The translations under genes were made by a program, and so were the position numbers. Below are positions 28,734 to 57,562 of a stretch of 64,000 nt of DNA, in pieces (positions within the stretch are counted from its first letter, which is position 1; the number at the start of each line of letters is the position of its first letter). The DNA is from Octopus sinensis (taxonomy: Eukaryota), in NCBI RefSeq assembly GCF_006345805.1, contig NW_021833575.1:17615-81614 (forward strand). The letters are read 5' to 3'. The notes under the pieces were generated by a model. The model was not told where the DNA came from and ran no database searches. It saw nothing but the letters and a program-made list of their open reading frames with translations.

Positions 28734-28735
<2 letters not shown>

Positions 28736-30727
28736 TCATTGTGCCCCGCTGCTTGAAATTTTATTTTAATTCTCTCGCAGGAAGGCCTATTGGATTAGTG
28801 TTCTGTTATGCCTTCGAAACATGCCTGACTCCTCTAGCGACAGCTGATGACGGGGGTTTTGTCCTTGTGTAACCTGTCCTGTATTTGGTTTTCGTTTTCC
28901 GTTTTCTTGTTTTTTGTTTTTTGGCTTTTTCTGTTTCTACGTCTTATTGTGATGTCCTGTACTTCCGTATAATTATTTATATATGCATGTATATATACAT
29001 GTAGATGTAGGTACGTACATATGTTTGTATGTATGCATATATTTTTATTTATCTCCTTATTGTCTGACAGCGCCCCGCATCAGTTTCGTCCGATTCGTCG
29101 TTTCGATCCACTTCTTGGTCCCCTTTTTTATATTAATATTATATATTGAAGATGCGGTACTCTCTCCCTTTGCTTTAACCTCTTCAATCTTTCTCCCCCC
29201 CTCCCCTCTCTCTTCGCCGCGTGTCCCCCTCCTCCTTCCCTCTTCCTTGCCTATAAAACAAAATTCCTTTACACGTGGTTACCACTATTGAAAAGACTGC
29301 CCCCACGCGCTGCTACTACACTTTCGTCCTTGCCAGCAAAAAGGCTTCTTCGTTCGTCCCCTTGTGTGGTTAATTTCCTGTATATATTCTTGTTATTTTC
29401 TCGTTTTGTAACTAATTGTACTTTTTGTACATGTATTTTTATTTTTGCAGTTTTATTGTTTGTCTATGCCAGAAAAAAGGCTTTTTCGTTCGTCCTCTTG
29501 TGTTTGTTTTTGTACATGTATTTTAATTTTGCAGTCTTATTGTTACGTCTTGTTTGTGTTCGTACTCATTGTGCCCCGCTGCTTGAAATTTTATTTTAAC
29601 TCTCTCGCAGGAAGGCCTATTGGATTAGTGTTCTGTTATGCCTTCGAAACATGCCTGACTCCTCTAGCGACAGCTGATGACGGGGGTTTTGTCCTTGTGT
29701 AACCTGTCCTGTATTTGGTTTTCGTTTTCCGTTTTCGTTGTTTTTGTTTTTTGGCTTTTTCTGTTTCTACGTCTTATTGTGATGTCCTGTACTTCCGTAT
29801 AATTATTTATATATGCATGTATATATACATGTAGATGTAGGTACGTACATATATGTTTGTATGTATGCATATATTTTTATTTATCTCCTTATTGTCTGAC
29901 AGCGCCCCGCATCAGGTTCGTTCCGATTCGTCGTTTCGATCCACTTCTTGGTCCCCTTTTTTATATTAATATTATTATATTGAAGATGCGGTACTCTCTC
30001 CCTTTGCTTTAACCTCTTCAATATTTCTCCCTCCCCCTCCTCCTCTCTCTTCGCCGCGTGTCCCCCTCCTCCTTCCCTCTTCCTTGCCTATAAAACAAAA
30101 TTCCTTTACACGTGGTTACCACTATTGAAAAGACTGCCTCCACGCGCTGCTACTACACTTTCGTCCTTGCCAGCAAAAAGGCTTCTTCGTTCGTCCCCTT
30201 GTGTGGTTAATTTCCTGTATAGTATTCTTGTTATTTTCTCGTTTTGTAACTATTGTACTTTTTGTACATGTATTTTTATTTTTGCAGTTTTATTGTTTGT
30301 CTATGCCAGAAAAAAGGCTTTTTCGTTCGTCCTCTTGTGTTTGTTTTTGTACATGTATTTTAATTTTGCAGTCTTATTGTTACGTCTTGTTTGTGTTCGT
30401 ACTCATTGTGCCCCGCTGCTTGAAATTTTATTTTAATTCTCTCGCAGGAAGGCCTATTGGATTAGTGTTCTGTTATGCCTTCGAAACATGCCTGACTCCT
30501 CTAGCGACAGCTGATGACGGGGGTTTTGTCCTTGTGTAACCTGTCCTGTATTTGGTTTTCGTTTTCCGTTTTCTTTTTTTTTTTTTTTTTGGCTTTTTCT
30601 GTTTCTACGTCTTATTGTGATGTCCTGTACTTCCGTATAATTATTTATATATGCATGATATATACATGTAGATGTAGGTACGTACATATATGTTTGTATG
30701 TATGCATATATTTTTATTTATCTCCTA
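28734..30727 (+). repeat. Tandem array of ~830-837-bp units, ~2.4 copies
   Basis: Same landmark (ccttcgaaac) at 28811, 29641 and 30478; bounded by (CA)n and (TA)n; a related fragment lies at ~26280-26520 (-). Confidence 0.95.
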
Positions 30728-31107
30728 TATATATATATATATATATATGACACACAATGGGCTTCTTTCTGTTTCTGTTTACCAAATCCACTCTCCACTC
30801 ACAAGGCTTTGGTAGGGCCGCGATTATAAGAGAAGATACTTGCCGAAGGCGCAGTGGGACTGAAACTGGAAGACAACCTCGTCATATAAATACATGCATT
30901 TGTATTTATACATATACATGTGTGTAAGTGGAGACTTCATATATATATATATATATATAATTATAATTATAATTAGGGTATCTGAGACATGCCACCACGC
31001 TGAAAATAGCAGTCAAAACCTGACTCTAACGCCACATTAAATGTTCATACAGTACCAGGAGAGAAGACAAAGAAACAAAATAAACTAGCAAAAAAATTAC
31101 TGGATAA

Positions 31108-33024: not shown

Positions 33025-33049
<25 letters not shown>

Positions 33050-33056
<7 letters not shown>

Positions 33057-36000
33057 CAACAATTGAGGGCAAAATTAATTAATTATTAATCAATTTCACC
33101 AAGTGTTCAGTATGCAAAGGGACCATTCAAGGCGAATTCAAATTATTACATTATATAAAAGGGCTTAGTAAAATAAATTACTTTGCCGCATACTGAACTC
33201 ATTAGAAATAGCAGCTAAAAAACTTTTTTAAGGCTATTTCTAATACTTAAAGAAAATCTCTCTCATATATAGTGTTTGCATAATTTAACTCACAAAAGTT
33301 TGGGGGTAATGACATCGAAAAATCAAATGCTAAGGTTATTCGAGAACGTACGTTTCAAGATTAGTCAAAACAACATTTCTATCATCGGCTCGGAAATTCC
33401 TTGGTTTGGATTTGGAAACACTGAAAATAAGAACATACCCTCTCGAAGATCTGCTCCCAACTAACAGTGCCAACAAATTCAAAATAAGCAAGCGAAGAAT
33501 CTCTGTTCTCCCCTTTCCACCAGCGTGGGTTAAAATCATCAAACTCTATGCTTATTTCGGTAAAGTCCGAAGCATTAATCAGAGGGAGATTAATTATAAT
33601 TTCAACAATTGAGGGCAAAATTAATTAATTATTAATCAATTTCACCAAGTGTTCAGTATGCAAAGGGACCATTCAAGGCGAATTCAAATTATTACATTAT
33701 ATAAAAGGGCTTAGTAAAATAAATTACTTTGCCGCATACTGAACTCATTAGAAATAGCAGCTAAAAAACTTTTTTAAGGCTATTTCTAATACTTAAAGAA
33801 AATCTCTCTCATATATAGTGTTTGCATAATTTAACTCACAAAAGTTTGGGGGTAATGACATCGAAAAATCAAATGCTAAGGTTATTCGAGAACGTACGTT
33901 TCAAGATTAGTCAAAACAACATTTCTATCATCGGCTCGGAAATTCCTTGGTTTGGATTTGGAAACACTGAAAATAAGAACATACCCTCTCGAAGATCTGC
34001 TCCCAACTAACAGTGCCAACAAATTCAAAATAAGCAAGCGAAGAATCTCTGTTCTCCCCTTTCCACCAGCGTGGGTTAAACTCATCAAACTCTATGCTTA
34101 TTTCGGTAAAGTCCGAAGCATTAATCAGAGGGAGATTAATTATAATTTCAACAATTGAGGGCAAAATTAATTAATTATTAATCAATTTCACCAAGTGTTC
34201 AGTATGCAAAGGGACCATTCAAGGCGAATTCAAATTATTACATTATATAAAAGGGCTTAGTAAAATAAATTACTTTGCCGCATACTGAACTCATTAGAAA
34301 TAGCAGCTAAAAAACTTTTTTAAGGCTATTTCTAATACTTAAAGAAAATCTCTCTCATATATAGTGTTTGCATAATTTAACTCACAAAAGTTTGGGGGTA
34401 ATGACATCGAAAAATCAAATGCTAAGGTTATTCGAGAACGTACGTTTCAAGATTAGTCAAAACAACATTTCTATCATCGGCTCGGAAATTCCTTGGTTTG
34501 GATTTGGAAACACTGAAAATAAGAACATACCCTCTCGAAGATCTGCTCCCAACTAACAGTGCCAACAAATTCAAAATAAGCAAGCGAAGAATCTCTGTTC
34601 TCCCCTTTCCACCAGCGTGGGTTAAAATCATCAAACTCCATGCTTATTTCGGTAAAGTCCGAAGCATTAATCAGAGGGAGATTAATTATAATTTCAACAA
34701 TTGAGGGCAAAATTAATTAATTATTAATCAATTTCACCAAGTGTTCAGTATGCAAAGGGACCATTCAAGGCGAATTCAAATTATTACATTATATAAAAGG
34801 GCTTAGTAAAATAAATTACTTTGCCGCATACTGAACTCATTAGAAATAGCAGCTAAAAAACTTTTTTAAGGCTATTTCTAATACTTAAAGAAAATCTCTC
34901 TCATATATAGTGTTTGCATAATTTAACTCACAAAAGTTTGGGGGTAATGACATCGAAAAATCAAATGCTAAGGTTATTCGAGAACGTACGTTTCAAGATT
35001 AGTCAAAACAACATTTCTATCATCGGCTCGGAAATTCCTTGGTTGGATTTGGAAACACTGAAAATAAGAACATACCCTCTCGAAGATCTGCTCCCAACTA
35101 ACAGTGCCAACAAATTCAAAATAAGCAAGCGAAGAATCTCTGTTCTCCCCTTTCCACCAGCGTGGGTTAAAATCATCAAACTCTATGCTTATTTCGGTAA
35201 AGTCCGAAGCATTAATCAGAGGGAGATTAATTATAATTTCAACAATTGAGGGCAAAATTAATTAATTATTAATCAATTTCACCAAGTGTTCAGTATGCAA
35301 AGGGACCATTCAAGGCGAATTCAAATTATTACATTATATAAAAGGGCTTAGTAAAATAAATTACTTTGCCGCATACTGAACTCATTAGAAATAGCAGCTA
35401 AAAAACTTTTTTAAGGCTATTTCTAATACTTAAAGAAAATCTCTCTCATATATAGTGTTTGCATAATTTAACTCACAAAAGTTTGGGGGTAATGACATCG
35501 AAAAATCAAATGCTAAGGTTATTCGAGAACGTACGTTTCAAGATTAGTCAAAACAACATTTCTATCATCGGCTCGGAAATTCCTTGGTTTGGATTTGGAA
35601 ACACTGAAAATAAGAACATACCCTCTCGAAGATCTGCTCCCAACTAACAGTGCCAACAAATTCAAAATAAGCAAGCGAAGAATCTCTGTTCTCCCTTCCC
35701 CTTTCCACCAGCGTGGGTTAAAATCATCAAACTCTATGCTTATTTCGGTAAAGTCCGAAGCATTAATCAGAGGGAGATTAATTATAATTTCAACAATTGA
35801 GGGCAAAATTAATTAATTATTAATCAATTTCACCAAGTGTTCAGTATGCAAAGGGACCATTCAAGGCGAATTCAAATTATTACATTATATAAAAGGGCTT
35901 AGTAAAATAAATTACTTTGCCGCATACTGAACTCATTAGAAATAGCAGCTAAAAAACTTTTTTAAGGCTATTTCTAATACTTAAAGAAAATCTCTCTCAT

Positions 36001-36961
36001 ATATAGTGTTTACCGAAATAAGCATAGAGTTTGATGATTTTAACCCACGCTGGTGGAAAGGGGAGAACAGAGATTCTTCGCTTGCTTATTTTGAATTTGT
36101 TGGCACTGTTAGTTGGGAGCAGATCTTCGAGAGGGTATGTTCTTATTTTCAGTGTTTCCAAATCCAAACCAAGGAATTTCCGAGCCGATGATAGAAATGT
36201 TGTTTTGACTAATCTTGAAACGTACGTTCTCGAATAACCTTAGCATTTGATTTTTCGATGTCATTACCCCCAAACTTTTGTGAGTTAAATTATGCAAACA
36301 CTATATATGAGAGAGATTTTCTTTAAGTATTAGAAATAGCCTTAAAAAAGTTTTTTAGCTGCTATTTCTAATGAGTTCAGTATGCGGCAAAGTAATTTAT
36401 TTTACTAAGCCCTTTTATATAATGTAATAATTTGAATTCGCCTTGAATGGTCCCTTTGCATACTGAACACTTGGTGAAATTGATTAATAATTAATTAATT
36501 TTGCCCTCAATTGTTGAAATTATAATTAATCTCCCTCTGATTAATGCTTCGGACTTTACCGAAATAAGCATAGAGTTTGATGATTTTAACCCACGCTGGT
36601 GGAAAGGGGAGAACAGAGATTCTTCGCTTGCTTATTTTGAATTTGTTGGCACTGTTAGTTGGGAGCAGATCTTCGAGAGGGTATGTTCTTATTTTCAGTG
36701 TTTCCAAATCCAAACCAAGGAATTTCCGAGCCGATGATAGAAATGTTGTTTTGACTAATCTTGAAACGTACGTTCTCGAATAACCTTAGCATTTGATTTT
36801 TCGATGTCATTACCCCCAAACTTTTGTGAGTTAAATTATGCAAACACTATATATGAGAGAGATTTTCTTTAAGTATTAGAAATAGCCTTAAAAAAGTTTT
36901 TTAGCTGCTATTTCTAATGAGTTCAGTATGCGGCAAAGTAATTTATTTTACTAAGCCCTTT

Positions 36962-36969
<8 letters not shown>
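33050..36969. mobile_element. Retrozyme-like tandem array, 546-bp unit: ~5.4 forward copies plus ~1.75 inverted copies
   Basis: Near-identical units; orientation switches at 36009-36011; one HHR per unit; (TA)n on both sides. Confidence 0.9.
33341..33392 (-). ncRNA. Hammerhead motif (U4C variant), first of 7 copies
   Basis: cgag-CCGATGA-taga...tctt-GAAA-cgtacg-TT-ctcg. Also at ~33887, 34433, 34979 and 35524 (-), and 36181 and 36727 (+). Confidence 0.8.
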
Positions 36970-37009
<40 letters not shown>

Positions 37010-37066
37010 TTAGTGAATGGAAGAAATGGAGTTGAACGAAGATTGTACAGAATTCCTTTTATTACA

Positions 37067-37146
37067 TTCTACACATGTTTCAAAGGCCACAATTTTCCAA
37101 ATTCTGATTAAATAAGGATACCATATTGCAGCTTTCTCTTCAGGAA
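37067..37146 (-). ncRNA. Hammerhead ribozyme motif in the PLE 3' terminal repeat
   Basis: ttc-CTGAAGA-gaaagctgcaat...attgtggccttt-GAAA-catgtg-TA-gaa. Confidence 0.8.
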
Positions 37147-37743
37147 AAAACAGGAATTCCGTTGACAGAACAAAACAAAACAGAGGCGTAGCAAAGCAAT
37201 TCGAACGAGGACGCTCCTTAACAGCCCATGGTTAAACTGTTTATCAATGTACGTTGAAATCGGGGGGTTGGTGCGTTGAAAATATTTACAGGTCAGGCGG
37301 CGGTCAAAACTAGTAGGTGAGAACAAGGGGTGTGGAGGTGTTCTGTGTGACCAAAACTAATGTTCTGAATACTTTAAGAATACAGGGTGTATTTTTGGGG
37401 GCGAGACAAAAACTACCTAAAAGCATGTATGTGTATACTGGCCTATGTGTGCGCGGCCGTATGTTGGCGAGGGGCGCTACATAATGATCACTGCTGAAAA
37501 AACCTGTCAGGCGGCTGAAAAAAATTTTTGTGTTCGTGTGTTCGTCTAGGCCTGCTTGTCAAAAATTAACATCGTCAAAGAATCCTAAGGGTATATATAA
37601 TTCCAGCGTTTGCTTCCAAAAAAAACCACCAATCGCCTAATGGGAGTAATTTCCCCTTGCAAGAGTTATTCATAGATTTTTTAAAAAGCTTTTTCAAAAA
37701 TTATTTCCAAAGATTATTTTCATTTTAGTAGGGTAACAAGGTG

Positions 37744-39521
37744 TTAATTGGGATTAGCTTCTGATATTAATACTGCGTTACTGTTACTATATTGACTGTG
37801 AGAACTGCGGCCGCTTACTACATTATATTCCTCATTATCACTATTAATTAACGGACTAACCCCTGTGTATTCCCTATCACTGAGAACGCTGTAATTGCTA
37901 GTATCCGTGGACCTGCTATTGCCGGAAACGATGCTAAAGTTGCTATTAGGACTCTCTACATTAATGACCCGAACTGCGCTCATCTCCCTATTACCATTAC
38001 TAACGTTATTGACATCACCATTTCTTCTATCGCTAATCCTATTATTTAATCCCTGGTTGGTACTGAGATTATCAGTCACTGTACTGGCTCTTTTATCATT
38101 ATTACTACTATTATTATTCCTACTGCGCGTTAAACTGGGATCGGACGGAGCTGCGCCTCCGGACAAAGGTGGTAGGGTCTTAATAAGCAGCCTATTATTA
38201 TGGGAGGCGATTATCTGGGAAAGGTTTTTTGTGTTGGAGAAAGCTATCCTAACTTTATGTGAATTAACCGTGGTGTAATATTTGGAATTTCTGGGGAAGT
38301 TACTGGCAATGGCTTGTCGAAACAGGAGGGGAAGGTTAGTTCTAATCTGCTTACCAAAGGGAATTACAAACCAGATATGTTTATTCCTATTTTTGTGATG
38401 GGTCTGGAAGCCAGCTCTGACATTAGGGTGGGTGATTCTAGGATGAATAAAAGGTTTTGGTTTAGTATGACCTCCCTCGGACCGAAAATTATCTATGTTC
38501 CCTAAATTAAATCCGGAAGTACCTGCTCCAACACTCCCCCCGCTCCCATCACTACTTAAATTATTTATGTTATTATAGACGGCCCTATCCTGATGACCGA
38601 ATGGTGGCATCGGAAGGGCTGGATCAATATATACTACCTTCTGCCTATAACCGGCTTTGGATAGTGCGGCGTTATAAAATTCCGCTTTCTGCATAAAAAT
38701 GTCGACACTAGCGGACAAGTTAGACAATCTTAGAGAGATGTTTTTAACCAAATTGTCTGTTACAGTTTTGGCATGATTGGAGAAGACACTGACATACTTT
38801 AAATTAGTGGAAGGCTTATGGTAAGGGAAGTATGAATCGCTATGGAGGTTTAGTGTGACGTCTAGGAAATTAGCCTTGGTGAATTCATTATCAAAAACTA
38901 TATTCATGCCCATTCTATTAAAGAACCTAGCTAACCTATTTTTAGTTTTCTGTACGATTCTGTTCGTGGTGTTTTGCAGGTAAAACAGACAATCGTCACG
39001 ATACAGGCCGCCCGCGATATCCGGGAATTGGTCGGATAATTCGTAGGGAATATAGATTCCGACCAAATCGGTTATCTGCGCACTATCCGAACTACCCATA
39101 GGCACATCGAATTCATTGGGAGTATCTTTACGAATCCACAACTTATTTTCAAACTTTATAAATGATTTTCTGGCAACTAAAATAATATCAATTTCTTCTC
39201 TAGTGAGGCCTGCCTTGTTGTGAGCATGCCACAGGGTCTTATTTAGTACACTAGGGTTAATCGAGGGGTAGAAGCTGGCGATATCAAACTGAATGAACCT
39301 AGTACGGTTCTTATTGGGGATGGAAGAGAACCACTTCACTACCTGCGAGAGGTAGCCCAGAGGCTAAGCTTCAGCTTATTTACTAAACTAGGGATATATT
39401 TATCTAAAATATACTTACTGATGGTCCCGATATCGGAACTAGCAGGGCATATGAGTCTTAACGCTGGGTTGGTGTAGAAATTCGGTTTGTGGTCCTTCAC
39501 TATGAATCTAGGTTTACTCGG
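37744..39521 (-). pseudogene. PLE reverse transcriptase (one frameshift near 39340), RT core plus thumb and S/N-rich tail
   Basis: KDHKPNF..PALRLICPA; FDIASFYPSI; VPMGSSDSAQITDLVG; GLYRDD; NFLDVTL; YHKP..SNH; WFVIPF..IIASHN. Confidence 0.92.
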
Positions 39522-39751
39522 AAAAGAGATCAAGAAGAATTATAGAACAACTAATTGGAGCACATTGAGGAAAGTAATCTTGGAGATTAAGGAAATAATG
39601 TTTAAATACGGAATTCAAATGAGAACGCAGCCGCTTAGCCCTAAACAACATTGATAAACAGTTTAACCATGGGCTCTTAAGGAGCGTCCTCGTTCGAATT
39701 GCTTTGCTACGCCTCTGTTTTGTTTTGTTCTGTCAACGGAATTCCTGTTTT

Positions 39752-39831
39752 TTCCTGAAGAGAAAGCTGCAATATGGTATCCTTATTTAATCAGAATTTG
39801 GAAAATTGTGGCCTTTGAAACATGTGTAGAA
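39752..39831 (+). ncRNA. Hammerhead ribozyme motif in the inverted PLE repeat
   Basis: Mirror copy of 37067-37146. Confidence 0.8.
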
Positions 39832-40072
39832 TGTAATAAAAGGAATTCTGTACAATCTTCGTTCAACTCCATTTCTTCCATTCACTAATAATATTAAACT
39901 TCAATTATCCGCACCAACGCACGGTTGCAACACCAAATGGTCTTATCGCCAACCGTGCTTTTTTCTGCTGTGATTTTTGCTACCCAGGTATCGGTTAAAC
40001 TTTTGAATAATCTGTAACAAGAAAATTCATCTTTCTATTTCAACAAACATATATATATATATATATATATAA

Positions 40073-47206: not shown

Positions 47207-47579
47207 GTGCGTGTGTGTGTATGTACATATAGGCGCAAGAGTGGCTGTGTGGTAAGAAGCTTGCTTCCCAACTATACAGCTCTGGGTTCAGTCCCACAGC
47301 ATGGCACTCTTGGCTAAGTGTCTTCTACTATAGCCTCGGGCCGACCAAAGCCTTGTGAGTAGGTTTGGCAGACGGAAACTGAAAAAAGCCCGTCGTATGT
47401 ATGTATGTATGTATGTGTAGAAGAACGTAGGCTCGAAATGTAAAATACTTTTTCTATTCCTGAGCGTTATACTAATACATTTGTTTGTTTTGTACACCAC
47501 CTGTCTTCGTCTTTTGTTGTTGTTTTTTTCATAAACTCTCCCTATATATATATATATATCGCTCAGAGATTTAATATTG

Positions 47580-47612
<33 letters not shown>

Positions 47613-47630
47613 CTCAGAGATTTAATATTG

Positions 47631-47660
<30 letters not shown>

Positions 47661-47663
<3 letters not shown>

Positions 47664-50410
47664 TATAATTAAGGGCTAAAGAGGGTTATTCTAAAGCCAA
47701 ATACACTGTTTTATCCACTTATAATCCGCTTGTTACAGGAAAATTGAAACTGAAAACGGGCAACTAACCTTTAGAAAATTTAAATTTCGTTATCTCTATA
47801 TTGAATCAATTTCGGACTTAATCTTATAAAAAAAGATATATTCCTTCTTCAGTAGAACTTTCGATGGGATATAAATAAAATACTCACGTATGATCATGGA
47901 AAAAGCACAAGCTAAAAACATAACTACACTTGAGTACATCACTTATATCTAAAAATAAAAATTCTTTGGTCAGCCTCAGAAAACAACGTCCAGACCTTTC
48001 GCCGCTACAAATTGTAATGGTTACCAGTCCTCCTGTAGTAAGCATCGAGTTTACTACTAAGCAATATAGGATGAAGTCCCTTACTCTACAGCAAAGGAAT
48101 TCATCAGGAAGCGTGGGCAGTATATTTAAAAAAACCGTTACGGTTGCAATATACATCATATAATTAAGGGCTAAAGAGGGTTATTCTAAAGCCAAATACA
48201 CTGTTTTATCCACTTATAATCCGCTTGTTACAGGAAAATTGAAACTGAAAACGGGCAACTAACCTTTAGAAAATTTAAATTTCGTTATCTCTATATTGAA
48301 TCAATTTCGGACTTAATCTTATAAAAAAAGATATATTCCTTCTTCAGTAGAACTTTCGATGGGATATAAATAAAATACTCACGTATGATCATGGAAAAAG
48401 CACAAGCTAAAAACATAACTACACTTGAGTACATCACTTATATCTAAAAATAAAAATTCTTTGGTCAGCCTCAGAAAACAACGTCCAGACCTTTCGCCGC
48501 TACAAATTGTAATGGTTACCAGTCCTCCTGTAGTAAGCATCGAGTTTACTACTAAGCAATATAGGATGAAGTCCCTTACTCTACAGCAAAGGAATTCATC
48601 AGGAAGCGTGGGCAGTATATTTAAAAAAACCGTTACGGTTGCAATATACATCATATAATTAAGGGCTAAAGAGGGTTATTCTAAAGCCAAATACACTGTT
48701 TTATCCACTTATAATCCGCTTGTTACAGGAAAATTGAAACTGAAAACGGGCAACTAACCTTTAGAAAATTAAATTTCGTTATCTCTATATTGAATCAATT
48801 TCGGACTTAATCTTATAAAAAAAGATATATTCCTTCTTCAGTAGAACTTTCGATGGGATATAAATAAAATACTCACGTATGATCATGGAAAAAGCACAAG
48901 CTAAAAACATAACTACACTTGAGTACATCACTTATATCTAAAAATAAAAATTCTTTGGTCAGCCTCAGAAAACAACGTCCAGACCTTTCGCCGCTACAAA
49001 TTGTAATGGTTACCAGTCCTCCTGTAGTAAGCATCGAGTTTACTACTAAGCAATATAGGATGAAGTCCCTTACTCTACAGCAAAGGAATTCATCAGGAAG
49101 CGTGGGCAGTATATTTAAAAAACCGTTACGGTTGCAATATACATCATATAATTAAGGGCTAAAGAGGGTTATTCTAAAGCCAAATACACTGTTTTATCCA
49201 CTTATAATCCGCTTGTTACAGGAAAATTGAAACTGAAAACGGGCAACTAACCTTTAGAAAATTTAAATTTCGTTATCTCTATATTGAATCAATTTCGGAC
49301 TTAATCTTATAAAAAAAGATATATTCCATCTTCAGTAGAACTTTCGATGGGATATAATAAAATAAATACTCACGTATGATCATGGAAAAAGCACAAGCTA
49401 AAAACATAACTACACTTGAGTACATCACTTATATCTAAAAATAAAAATTCTTTGGTCAGCCTCAGAAAACAACGTCCAGACCTTTCGCCGCGCTACAAAT
49501 TGTAATGGTTACCAGTCCTCCTGTAGTAAGCATCGAGTTTACTACTAAGCATATAGGATGAAGTCCCTTACTCTACAGCAAAGGAATTCATCAGGAAGCG
49601 TGGCAGTATATTTAAAAAAACCGTTACGGTTGCAATATACATCATATAATTAAGGGCTAAAGAGGGTTATTCTAAAGCCAAATACACTGTTTTATCCACT
49701 TATAATCCGCTTGTTACAGGAAAATTGAAACTGAAAACGGGCAACTACCTTTAGAAAATTTAAATTTCGTTATCTCTATATTGAATCAATTTCGGACTTA
49801 ATCTTATAAAAAAAGATATATTCCTTCTTCAGTAGAACTTTCGATGGGATATAAATAAAATACTCACGTATGATCATGGCAAAAGCACAAGCTAAAAACA
49901 TAACTACACTTGAGTACATCACTTATATCTAAAAATAAAAATCTTTTTGGTCAGCCTCAGAAAACACAAACGTCCAGACCTTTCGCGCCGCTAACAAATG
50001 TAATGGTTACCAGTCCTCCTGTAGTAAGCATCGAGTTTACTACTAAGCAATATAGGATGAAGTCCCTTACTCTCTACAGCAAAGGAATTCATCAGGAAGC
50101 GTGGGCAGTATATTTAAAAAAACCGTTACGGTTGCAATATACATCATATAATTAAGGGCTAAAGAGGGTTATTCTAAAGCCAAATACACTGTTTTATCCA
50201 CTTATAATCCGCTTGTTACAGGAAAATTGAAACTGAAAACGGGCAACTAACCTTTAAAAATTTAAATTTCGTTATCTCTATATTGAATCAATTCGGACTT
50301 AATCTTATAAAAAAAGATATATTCCTTCTTCAGTAGAACTTTCGATGGGATATAATAAAATACTCACGTATGATCATGGAAAAAGCACAAGCTAAAAACA
50401 TAACTACATA
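47661..50410. mobile_element. Retrozyme-like tandem array, 495-bp unit, ~5.5 copies
   Basis: Unit starts at ~47662, 48157, 48652, 49145, 49643 and 50145; one HHR per unit; (TA)n on both sides. Confidence 0.9.
47795..47856 (-). ncRNA. Hammerhead ribozyme motif, first of 6 copies
   Basis: tcta-CTGAAGA-a-gga...tcc-GAAA-ttga t tcaa-TA-taga; recurs every ~495 bp. Confidence 0.85.
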
Positions 50411-52413: not shown

Positions 52414-53419
52414 ATATATAAATTATATAAATAAATTTCTTTAACCATATACGGTTACAAATTCTGTTTGTGTGGAGACTTTTATTAGTAGGAGAAATAG
52501 TGATCAATTTGGCTGCTATTTCTAATATTTTCGGTATGTGGTTTTGAGCAACTTGTTGCAATTAACCCTTTATTATAATTAATATAATTCTTACCAAATA
52601 TGGTCTTTTCCATACCGATAAATCTACTAGGTGAAATTTATTAATTTTATTAAATTAATCATATTTCACCATTTTTTGTATATATATATATAATTTAGAA
52701 CAACCACCTTTTATCAATTTAAAATGAACAATTAAATTACACCATCTAGAAAATTACATAAAATAGAAATATAAAAATAAAATAACAATAATATACCCCT
52801 GATTAAGTAAATTGCAAAATAATAATAAAAACGTATATATTTGGTAGAATAACACATATATATATACAATATACATCTATACATGAATATGCATATATTT
52901 GACAACCACATCACTTATTGGTTTTTATGAATTTGTTGAGTTTCCTGTTCATCCTGATGATGGGGTCATTGCCGAAATGCACTTTAACTCGTAATCGAAC
53001 CGCGGCAATGAACTCCCGAAATGGCCATAGCTGTGTTTGACTAGATTTTGTGGAAACCTTTTTAGTCCTGACTCCAACCTACCTTGGTTTTTATGAAATG
53101 AACTTTTTTGATGTACTCTTTTGTTTGAGAGGAGTAAGAAAATTTTTTCAATCGATTGATATTTTATTTTATTTAGATTTTTAGTAGTATGACACATTTT
53201 AGAATTTTTAGTCGATTGTATATACCTTCTTTTAGGCCGTTCTATACATCTGTATTTTTATTTGCATATATATATTTTACCTTCTGTATTATTTATATAT
53301 GTATACTTTATATACTTAAGAGCCATGGTAATATTTATATATGATCAAATGTTTGGAAGCATGGTGTTATATATAAAGTCGTTGACTCGCATTTGATGTT
53401 TGTTCTATGATCAACGTTA

Positions 53420-56751: not shown

Positions 56752-57099
56752 TATAAGCCACGTAGTTATATACACATACTTTGTTATATACGCTTCTTAA
56801 AAGAAAATGTTATTTTGAATACAACATTTATAAAGAATAAAATATTTTTTGGTTTTTCTTAATCCTTTCGTTACTATATTTCTGACCAAAATACACCCCT
56901 TATGTGTTTCAATTAATTTCTAACGTAATCATAAATTTAGTCTGGTTTCATTAAACAACTATAACTTTTTTATTTATCAATATATAATGTGATTTTTGGA
57001 AGATAATTTAATGAAATGTCCTCAACCAATTCTATACTATAATTTTTGTCACAAAGTGACTCTAATTGCAGGTAGATACAGGCAAATTCAACAATATAT

Positions 57100-57562
57100 A
57101 AAATTATTAAAATTTTGTTCAAACATCGCTATAGAAAATGGGTTATTAGCTAATATTCAATTGGGTATACAACAAAATTTTACGATAGAATTTGTTATTC
57201 TGGGTAACTTTCTGTAAAATTATTAAAATTTTGTTCAAACATATCTATAGAAAATGGGTTATTAGCTAATATTCAATTGGGTATACAACAAAATTTTACG
57301 ATAGAATTTGTTATTCTGGGTAACTTTCTGTAAAATTATTAAAATTTTGTTCAAACATCGCTAGAGAAAATGGGTTATTAGCTAATATTCAATTGGGTAT
57401 ACAACAAAATTTTACAATAGAATTTGTTATTCTGGTTAACTTTCTGTAAAATTATTAAAATTTTGTTCAAACATCGCTATAGAAAATGGGTTATTAGCTA
57501 ATATTCAATTGGGTATACAACAAAATTTTACGATAGAATTTGTTATTCTGGGTAACTTTCTG
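57100..57562. repeat. 116-bp tandem repeat, 4 copies
   Basis: Unit starts at ~57100, 57216, 57332 and 57447. Confidence 0.95.

Follow-up and report, generated by a model that had tools for sequence, protein, structure and literature searches.

A new hammerhead-bearing non-LTR retrozyme family in Octopus sinensis, a probable non-autonomous passenger of Penelope-like elements (PLEs) with fixed ends in (TA)n

The 64,000-nucleotide stretch of the Octopus sinensis genome analysed here (the window; contig NW_021833575.1) contains a tandem array of hammerhead-bearing 495-bp units. The family to which this array belongs is a new non-LTR retrozyme and a non-autonomous passenger of Penelope-like elements (PLEs); the retrozyme class is already known, and this is a new family within it. 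Mobilisation of the family by PLE machinery is very probable. The array itself probably stems from one insertion, in which the enzyme of a Hydra-clade PLE would have copied a circular RNA monomer several times round.

TRF places the array at 47654-50408 with a period of 495, 5.6 copies and 98% matches, in agreement with the roughly 5.5 copies of an initial annotation of this DNA; the (TA)n on both sides and the further hairpins that it mentioned are present as well. It gave neither the strand of the motifs nor the insertion signature of PLE type. The motifs lie on the minus (hammerhead) strand, which is the RNA sense. Counted from the predicted cleavage site, the array is truncated on its 5' side at unit position 366. 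The features are as follows.

47582..47660, strand not applicable: (TA)n target tract at the 3' end of the array
47654..47661, minus: 3' junction 'site 1' (unit positions 138-145), then (TA)n; fixed end throughout the family
47654..50408, minus: tandem array of 5.6 non-coding units of 495 bp (TRF, 98% matches)
47795..47856, minus: type I hammerhead, copy 1, found by descriptor; predicted cut after AUA, between 47799 and 47798
47870..47957, minus: long hairpin immediately 5' of the ribozyme; an independent fold of the 467-bp sister unit forms one too
48039..48039, strand not applicable: array-private substitution at unit position 255, in 5/5 units of the array
48058..48106, minus: hairpin gatgaattcctt/aagggacttcatc, then 'site 2' (unit position ~236), the second fixed end
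48114..48206, minus: conserved multi-helix domain enclosing site 1, common to the 467-bp and 546-bp families
48290..48351, minus: hammerhead motif, copy 2, intact core
48609-48701, 49103-49194, 49600-49692 and 50102-50194, minus: repeats of the end domain
48784..48845, minus: hammerhead motif, copy 3, intact core
49278..49339, minus: hammerhead motif, copy 4, intact core, extra base U instead of A
49775..49836, minus: hammerhead motif, copy 5, intact core
50277..50337, minus: hammerhead motif, copy 6 (5'-most), GAA for GAAA
50408..50463, strand not applicable: (TA)n tract at the 5' end of the array

Site 1 can be read as a putative start of reverse transcription, and site 2 is used by inverted arms at other genomic loci. 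The allele at 48039 is absent from every other locus examined and from all four public runs. The unit has a GC content of ~0.34 and its longest stop-free frame is ~100 codons; as tblastn returned no PLE protein match to it at E below 2, a coding remnant within the unit was ruled out. No ORF contiguous with the unit was found in 130 stretches around family copies, and the RT fragments in a few copy flanks are separate insertions that are not part of the unit. At the 3' end of the array, between (TA)n tracts, a short unique spacer is duplicated with a 51-bp period (47543-47662), and the 5' flank has no such duplication. Elsewhere, the window holds a ~830-bp tandem repeat (28734-30730, ~2.4 copies, 98% identity) and a 116-bp tandem repeat (57099-57562, 4 copies, 97%).

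The hammerhead consists of a 4-bp stem I, CUGAAGA with one extra base after A9, a stem II of 3 bp plus an extended hairpin, GAAA and a palindromic stem III. The initial annotation described six motifs with an intact core; the six motifs and their palindromic stem III stand, but only five of the six cores are intact. The A missing from GAAA in copy 6 may be a long-read homopolymer error. Over both strands of all 64 kb, the five intact motifs are the sole matches to a generic type I descriptor. Over 47660-50410, Rfam returned 0 matches at E<=10; its curated hammerhead models probably miss the unit because of the long stem II insertion. The hammerhead was thus called from the descriptor and from covariation. 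For the whole window, the 150 Rfam rows listed, out of 306, contained microsatellite-driven miRNA noise only. Folding of the circular monomer, which had been put forward as a check, gave -122.8 kcal/mol for the minus strand (z -4.7 against 40 dinucleotide shuffles) and a z of -1.3 for the opposite strand. The minus strand is thus much more stable than its shuffles, unlike the opposite strand, but the ribozyme is not formed in the minimum-energy circle, and forcing its fold costs 5.9 kcal/mol.

A sister family of 467-469 bp (2,740 candidates) shares 59% global identity with the 495-bp unit and has two ends and inversions like it. In an alignment of 30 hammerhead copies of both families, representing only two to three related lineages, 5 of the 12 pairs change on both sides. 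Here, 94.7% of the cells pair, compared to 49% or less when the alignment is slid, and 0 of 500 shuffles reach this value. The first pair of stem II is broken in 6 of the 30 rows, and one old subfamily has an A-C mismatch there. Excess conservation of the core among diverged copies, to which the initial annotation had attached weight, was indeed found: among 29 diverged motifs C3 is kept in 28, G5 in 27, A6 in 29 and G8 in 27, with a nearby identity of 72-79%. The free N7 varies in six of them and U4 is replaced by C in three. These motifs come from subfamilies that are 77-95% identical or more distant and were picked by the ribozyme 3' half only; three junction-truncated rows were left out and one further junction row was kept. 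Eight gaps at A9 are due to aligner placement, the A being present in the sequences. Public-run contigs that match only across the ribozyme keep CUGAAGA and differ in stem II. Two autonomous Hydra-like families (L253, L254, L258, L309-L311, L319) have CCGAAGA cores, with U4 replaced by C. On these sequence grounds, the hammerhead of the 495-bp unit is predicted to be a self-cutting ribozyme. According to the accessible text of a 2026 preprint (bioRxiv 10.64898/2026.07.22.740005), 8 of 9 predicted retrozymes did not cleave.

The family is dispersed through the microsatellite-rich genome of 2.7 Gb, with at least 211 matches from the 40 best of 986 candidates. The two halves of the ribozyme have 329 and 562 exact matches in the genome, the former number being that of exact core motifs. 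Exact junctions between site 1 and (TA)n number at least 172, against 0 for a reversed control, and the 100 of them that were listed are spread over 12 chromosome-scale contigs. Ends were mapped at 37 score-selected loci and at 60 junction-selected ones, the latter drawn from the first 100 of the 172 junctions. All counts exclude L046 and L052, which duplicate other loci, and L033, the degraded tail of L032; L032 itself is also excluded from the end counts. The 49 arms of the score-selected loci have their 3' ends at 143-146 (37/49), 230-239 (9/49) or 184-189 (3/49), while their 5' ends scatter over unit positions 1-464. Since TA extends the match, the true site-1 junction lies at 138-145 and not at 143-146. 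Nearly all arms of this set, which was not selected for (TA)n, have a (TA)n-type 3' flank. At the junction-selected loci, the end lies at 236-243 in 25 of 27 additional arms. Compared to site 1, exact junctions of site 2 are less frequent and more diverse (14 and 9 for two exact patterns). Head-to-head inverted arms occur at 12 of the 37 score-selected and 24 of the 60 junction-selected loci, usually with one arm per site. Insertions range from 0.1 to more than 10 units, with a median arm of ~200 bp in the junction-selected set. Target-site duplications are not resolvable inside (TA)n. Classical satellite DNA was rejected as a description of these short dispersed insertions with polarised ends. 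Two fixed ends combined with inversions are traits of PLEs and not of LINEs. At loci L101-L160, 5' truncations are concentrated around unit positions 429-431 and 327-332, where the two sides of the long predicted hairpin lie; pausing of the RT at RNA structure is a possible cause.

When folded independently, the 495 and 467 monomers both form the multi-helix domain round site 1, the hairpin before site 2 and the long hairpin before the ribozyme. The fold of the end-domain alignment has 19 pairs, 3 of them with double-sided changes. A covariance model was built from 13 copies of the 495- and 467-bp families and none of the 546 family. This model matches all seven domain places in the 546-bp array of the window at full length, with 31.1 bits and a rough E of ~0.002, and its best unassignable matches have 19 bits or less. 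The 546 match surrounds that array's own insertion end. The initial annotation had described the 495-bp array as unrelated to the 546-bp unit, with no obvious similarity and the same architecture. At the sequence level the lack of similarity holds, as local alignment of the two units scores no better than shuffles, but 'unrelated' is contradicted by the end domain. Because a model built without 546 copies matches the 546 end domain, the two arrays are most likely distant relatives and not independent inventions. The shared architecture applies to the ends, the inversion and the end domain, but no canonical hammerhead was found in the 546 unit: its CUGAUUA...GAAA motif is without G8 and incompatible with one, the descriptor (at most one core mismatch) found none and Rfam gave nothing meaningful. 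Similarly, the claim that several independent retrozyme families were recently active is borne out as to dispersal, several families and young arrays 0.64% apart, whereas their independence is not, given the match of the 546 unit to the model. The end domain might serve as the binding and initiation signal for the PLE protein. The arms of the 546-bp array itself (33049-36976) stand head to head, and each ends in (TA)n at a site of its own. At 52419-52680 (+), a short (TA)n-flanked fragment of another 546-like family has a covariance-model match at 52529-52621. At L173:7296-7772, head-to-head arms come from different families (546-like and 467) with no TA between them, which suggests, in this one case, that two RNAs were used in one event.

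Of the 87 arms in the junction set, 45 extend across the cleavage site and one ends there; therefore, the template was continuous at this site. Five of 29 multi-unit loci carry substitutions that are fixed in all 4-6 units and unseen at the other loci examined, a comparison that covers ~100 loci and thus part of the family. These are the array in the window, L063, L067 (on both inverted arms), L070 and L127; L036 and L056 have 4/4 variants that are not strictly private. Since assembly indel noise is frequent, only substitutions were counted, away from gaps. The substitution distance is 0.30% within an array versus 0.51-0.64% between arrays, and inverted arms belong to the same subfamily wherever they overlap. 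As private substitutions are found in every unit, repeated copying of one circular monomer fits these arrays, and repeated copying of one monomer is their simplest reading. L065 is a mosaic, with the other haplotype in 1 of its 8 full units, and a few variants are restricted to 2-3 units of their array. Because multi-unit arrays are also formed by the 546 family, in which no canonical hammerhead was found, ribozyme and arrays are less firmly linked. Among the runs listed as containing the 495 unit, none is recorded as RNA. One contig of 526 nt, from a run that is RNA by guess only, can be closed on itself by 495 nt, which fits a circle and tandem DNA equally well; the contigs of the four public runs cannot show cleavage, strand or level. 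In the accessible text of PMC4209133 and PMC7229834, mobilisation of retrozymes by a PLE enzyme on circular RNA is a proposal.

Like the animal non-LTR retrozymes in the accessible text of PMC7229834 (Cervera and de la Pena 2020) and the 2026 preprint (Li, Clavereau and Pollet), the 495-bp family consists of non-coding tandem repeats of low GC content, each unit with a single type I hammerhead, and is dispersed as monomers to multimers in a genome with PLEs. Its unit of 495 bp lies above the 150-450 bp given in PMC7229834 and within the 51-972 bp of the preprint. Unlike those retrozymes, its hammerhead is PLE-style, with an extra base after A9 and a long stem II. Fixed internal ends, inverted arms, an end domain and array-private variants are not reported in the parts of either source that are accessible. 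In the preprint, homology of pLTRs connects retrozymes with PLEs; among the sampled families, no such homology was found for the 495 family. The accessible text of PMC8557442 (Craig et al. 2021) describes PLE copies as 5'-truncated, with ends at constant positions, a tail and a second copy inverted upstream. It gives (TA)n as the insertion target of Hydra elements, one of them from Octopus bimaculoides, and an additional base behind A9 and a palindromic stem III centred on 1 nt as frequent in their hammerheads; the accessible supplement gives this (TA)n preference and this type of hammerhead for Hydra-1_Obim. The 495 family shares with these Hydra-clade PLEs the (TA)n target, a hammerhead near the 3' end with palindromic stem III, and 5'-truncated, inverted copies with an optional tail, and differs in having no RT/endonuclease (GIY-YIG) ORF. 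Its two ends are ~95 nt apart (75-150 nt in local autonomous families), compared to a tail of 30-40 nt in a figure of PMC8557442. Chlamys PLEs such as MRC1, as far as described there, are likewise non-autonomous passengers with multicopy head-to-tail insertions, but generally carry the 3' sequence of an autonomous family and mostly lack canonical hammerheads, unlike the 495 family. For the Anolis Poseidon PAc, the accessible text of PMC11167929 (Frangieh et al. 2024) reports that such ends are set in vitro by RT initiation at two sites inside the RNA, that the target is AT-rich and that both strands prime; the 495 family is similar, its starts being putative. PAc is autonomous and its hammerhead is dispensable for insertion in vitro, whereas the 495 family is non-autonomous.

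A 5'-truncated Hydra-clade-like PLE lies in the window at 37004-39894 (-), with a YRDD RT, a 539-codon frame and an inverted terminal arm. It has its own hammerhead with a long stem II and a 6-nt palindromic stem III, and shares one (TA)n tract with the 546-bp array. Its relatives have ORFs of ~900 codons with a long Asn/Ser-rich insert where the CxCX5C linker would be. In the autonomous PLE families of the genome, ORFs are intact, span 717-960 codons and encode DKT, R(W)K-type and YRDD motifs. RWK, DKT, the CxCX5C linker, CxxC and CxH are marks of the Hydra clade in the accessible text of PMC8557442; homologues of the sampled PLEs have them, and the window PLE family is without the linker. 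An Argonauta protein is among the top homologues of a neighbouring element, and Pfam named no family for the PLE proteins. In most PLE families examined, a hammerhead precedes two ends in (TA)n that lie ~75-150 nt apart. None of the sampled autonomous families has sequence or the end domain in common with the 495 unit (blastn, covariance model), the sample being the top hits of four protein searches that left out Neptune, Penelope/Poseidon and Naiad proteins, with 56-150 of 10,000-120,000 candidates scored in each. The PLE at 37004-39894 was rejected as partner, its terminal repeats having no match by either method. Other sampled Hydra-like families were rejected as well, the matches in their loci being separate small insertions of the sister families. 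In 30 further places, mostly with the ribozyme 3' half, older subfamilies and no partner were found, and four short motifs of the 495 and 467 families are absent from the accessible part of the PMC8557442 supplement. Since homology to the sampled families is lacking, the assignment to Hydra rests on target, layout and availability.

The preferred reading, a circular monomer copied several times in one insertion, can be laid out in six steps. A tandem copy would be transcribed on the hammerhead strand. The hammerheads are predicted to cut the transcript into 495-nt monomers, possibly as dimers via the palindromic stem III, to be ligated into circles. A PLE reverse transcriptase/GIY-YIG protein would then bind the domain ~90-180 nt past the cleavage site and nick (TA)n. 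Reverse transcription would start inside the RNA at site 1 or 2; the fixed ends are observed, and the starts are suggested by the accessible text of PMC11167929. Copying would pass the cleavage junction for a variable distance, in line with the observed lengths of 0.1 to more than 10 units. Finally, both target strands may prime, giving the observed pattern of one arm per site with arms meeting head to head. A wider model is offered tentatively: an octopod superfamily (495, 467, 546 nt and others) with an RT-recruiting domain and two starts might move through a telomerase-like PLE enzyme that performs rolling-circle target-primed reverse transcription on circular RNA. An array would then be the multi-lap record of one circle, with a protein dimer priming both strands, sometimes on different RNAs, and the 546 branch would circularise without a canonical hammerhead, perhaps by a variant ribozyme.

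The same PLE insertion might instead use an uncleaved multimeric read-through transcript from an array already present, or one linear monomer with template jumps, with the hammerhead as a weak or regulated passenger. We regard this as rather unlikely. In its favour, read-through of the cleavage site fits it equally well, the 546-bp relative makes arrays without a detectable canonical hammerhead, the L065 mosaic favours it, and in the accessible text of PMC11167929 uncleaved RNA is the main substrate of the anole PLE and hammerhead mutants have no effect on insertion in vitro. A multimeric template should, however, pass on the substitutions of its source array, and the variants of the five arrays occur in no other of the ~100 loci, a partial sample. 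The ribozyme core is also conserved across subfamilies 77-95% identical or more distant, and the 5' end of 3 of 136 arms lies no more than 2 nt from the cleavage site, which hints weakly at the existence of cleaved RNA.

Growth in place, where single units insert by PLE machinery and arrays then expand by unequal crossing-over or slippage like a satellite, is discussed in the accessible text of the 2026 preprint. It would explain array-private fixed substitutions as well as the few variants confined to 2-3 units. It is nevertheless improbable here, since the arrays are young (~0.3% within an array) and combine random 5' truncation with fixed 3' ends, inverted arms are often both multi-unit with the same haplotype and private variants (L044, L053, L057, L067), and the older subfamilies in the sample are not longer but shorter, with 2 motifs per strand at most. 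Least credible is a driver other than a Hydra-clade PLE, such as a Naiad or Neptune PLE or a LINE that targets (TA)n. The 495 unit has no sequence in common with the sampled Hydra families and octopus Naiads likewise prefer (TA)n, but intact Hydra families with the layout of a hammerhead followed by two ends are abundant in this genome. According to the accessible text of PMC8557442, moreover, cephalopod Naiads are long-inactivated remnants, and Naiads have no canonical hammerheads.

No report of cephalopod retrozymes was found in the openly searchable literature, a scope outside which subscription papers, Repbase and Dfam lie. An Octopus vulgaris repeat paper (PMC13282606) describes recently active PLE families and, in its accessible text, does not mention ribozymes. 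The mechanism of retrozyme mobilisation is called unresolved in the accessible text of the 2026 preprint. The 495 family supplies exact putative start sites and a candidate recognition domain with natural compensatory variants, and its genome also encodes intact candidate enzymes. A genomic signature that separates circle copying from its alternatives is given by private variants of an array that appear on both of its inverted arms. Taken together, the starts, domain, enzymes and array signature make a reconstitution experiment directly possible. In its start sites, common RNA domain and single-template arrays, the 495-bp family thus retains unusually clear genomic traces of the mechanism.
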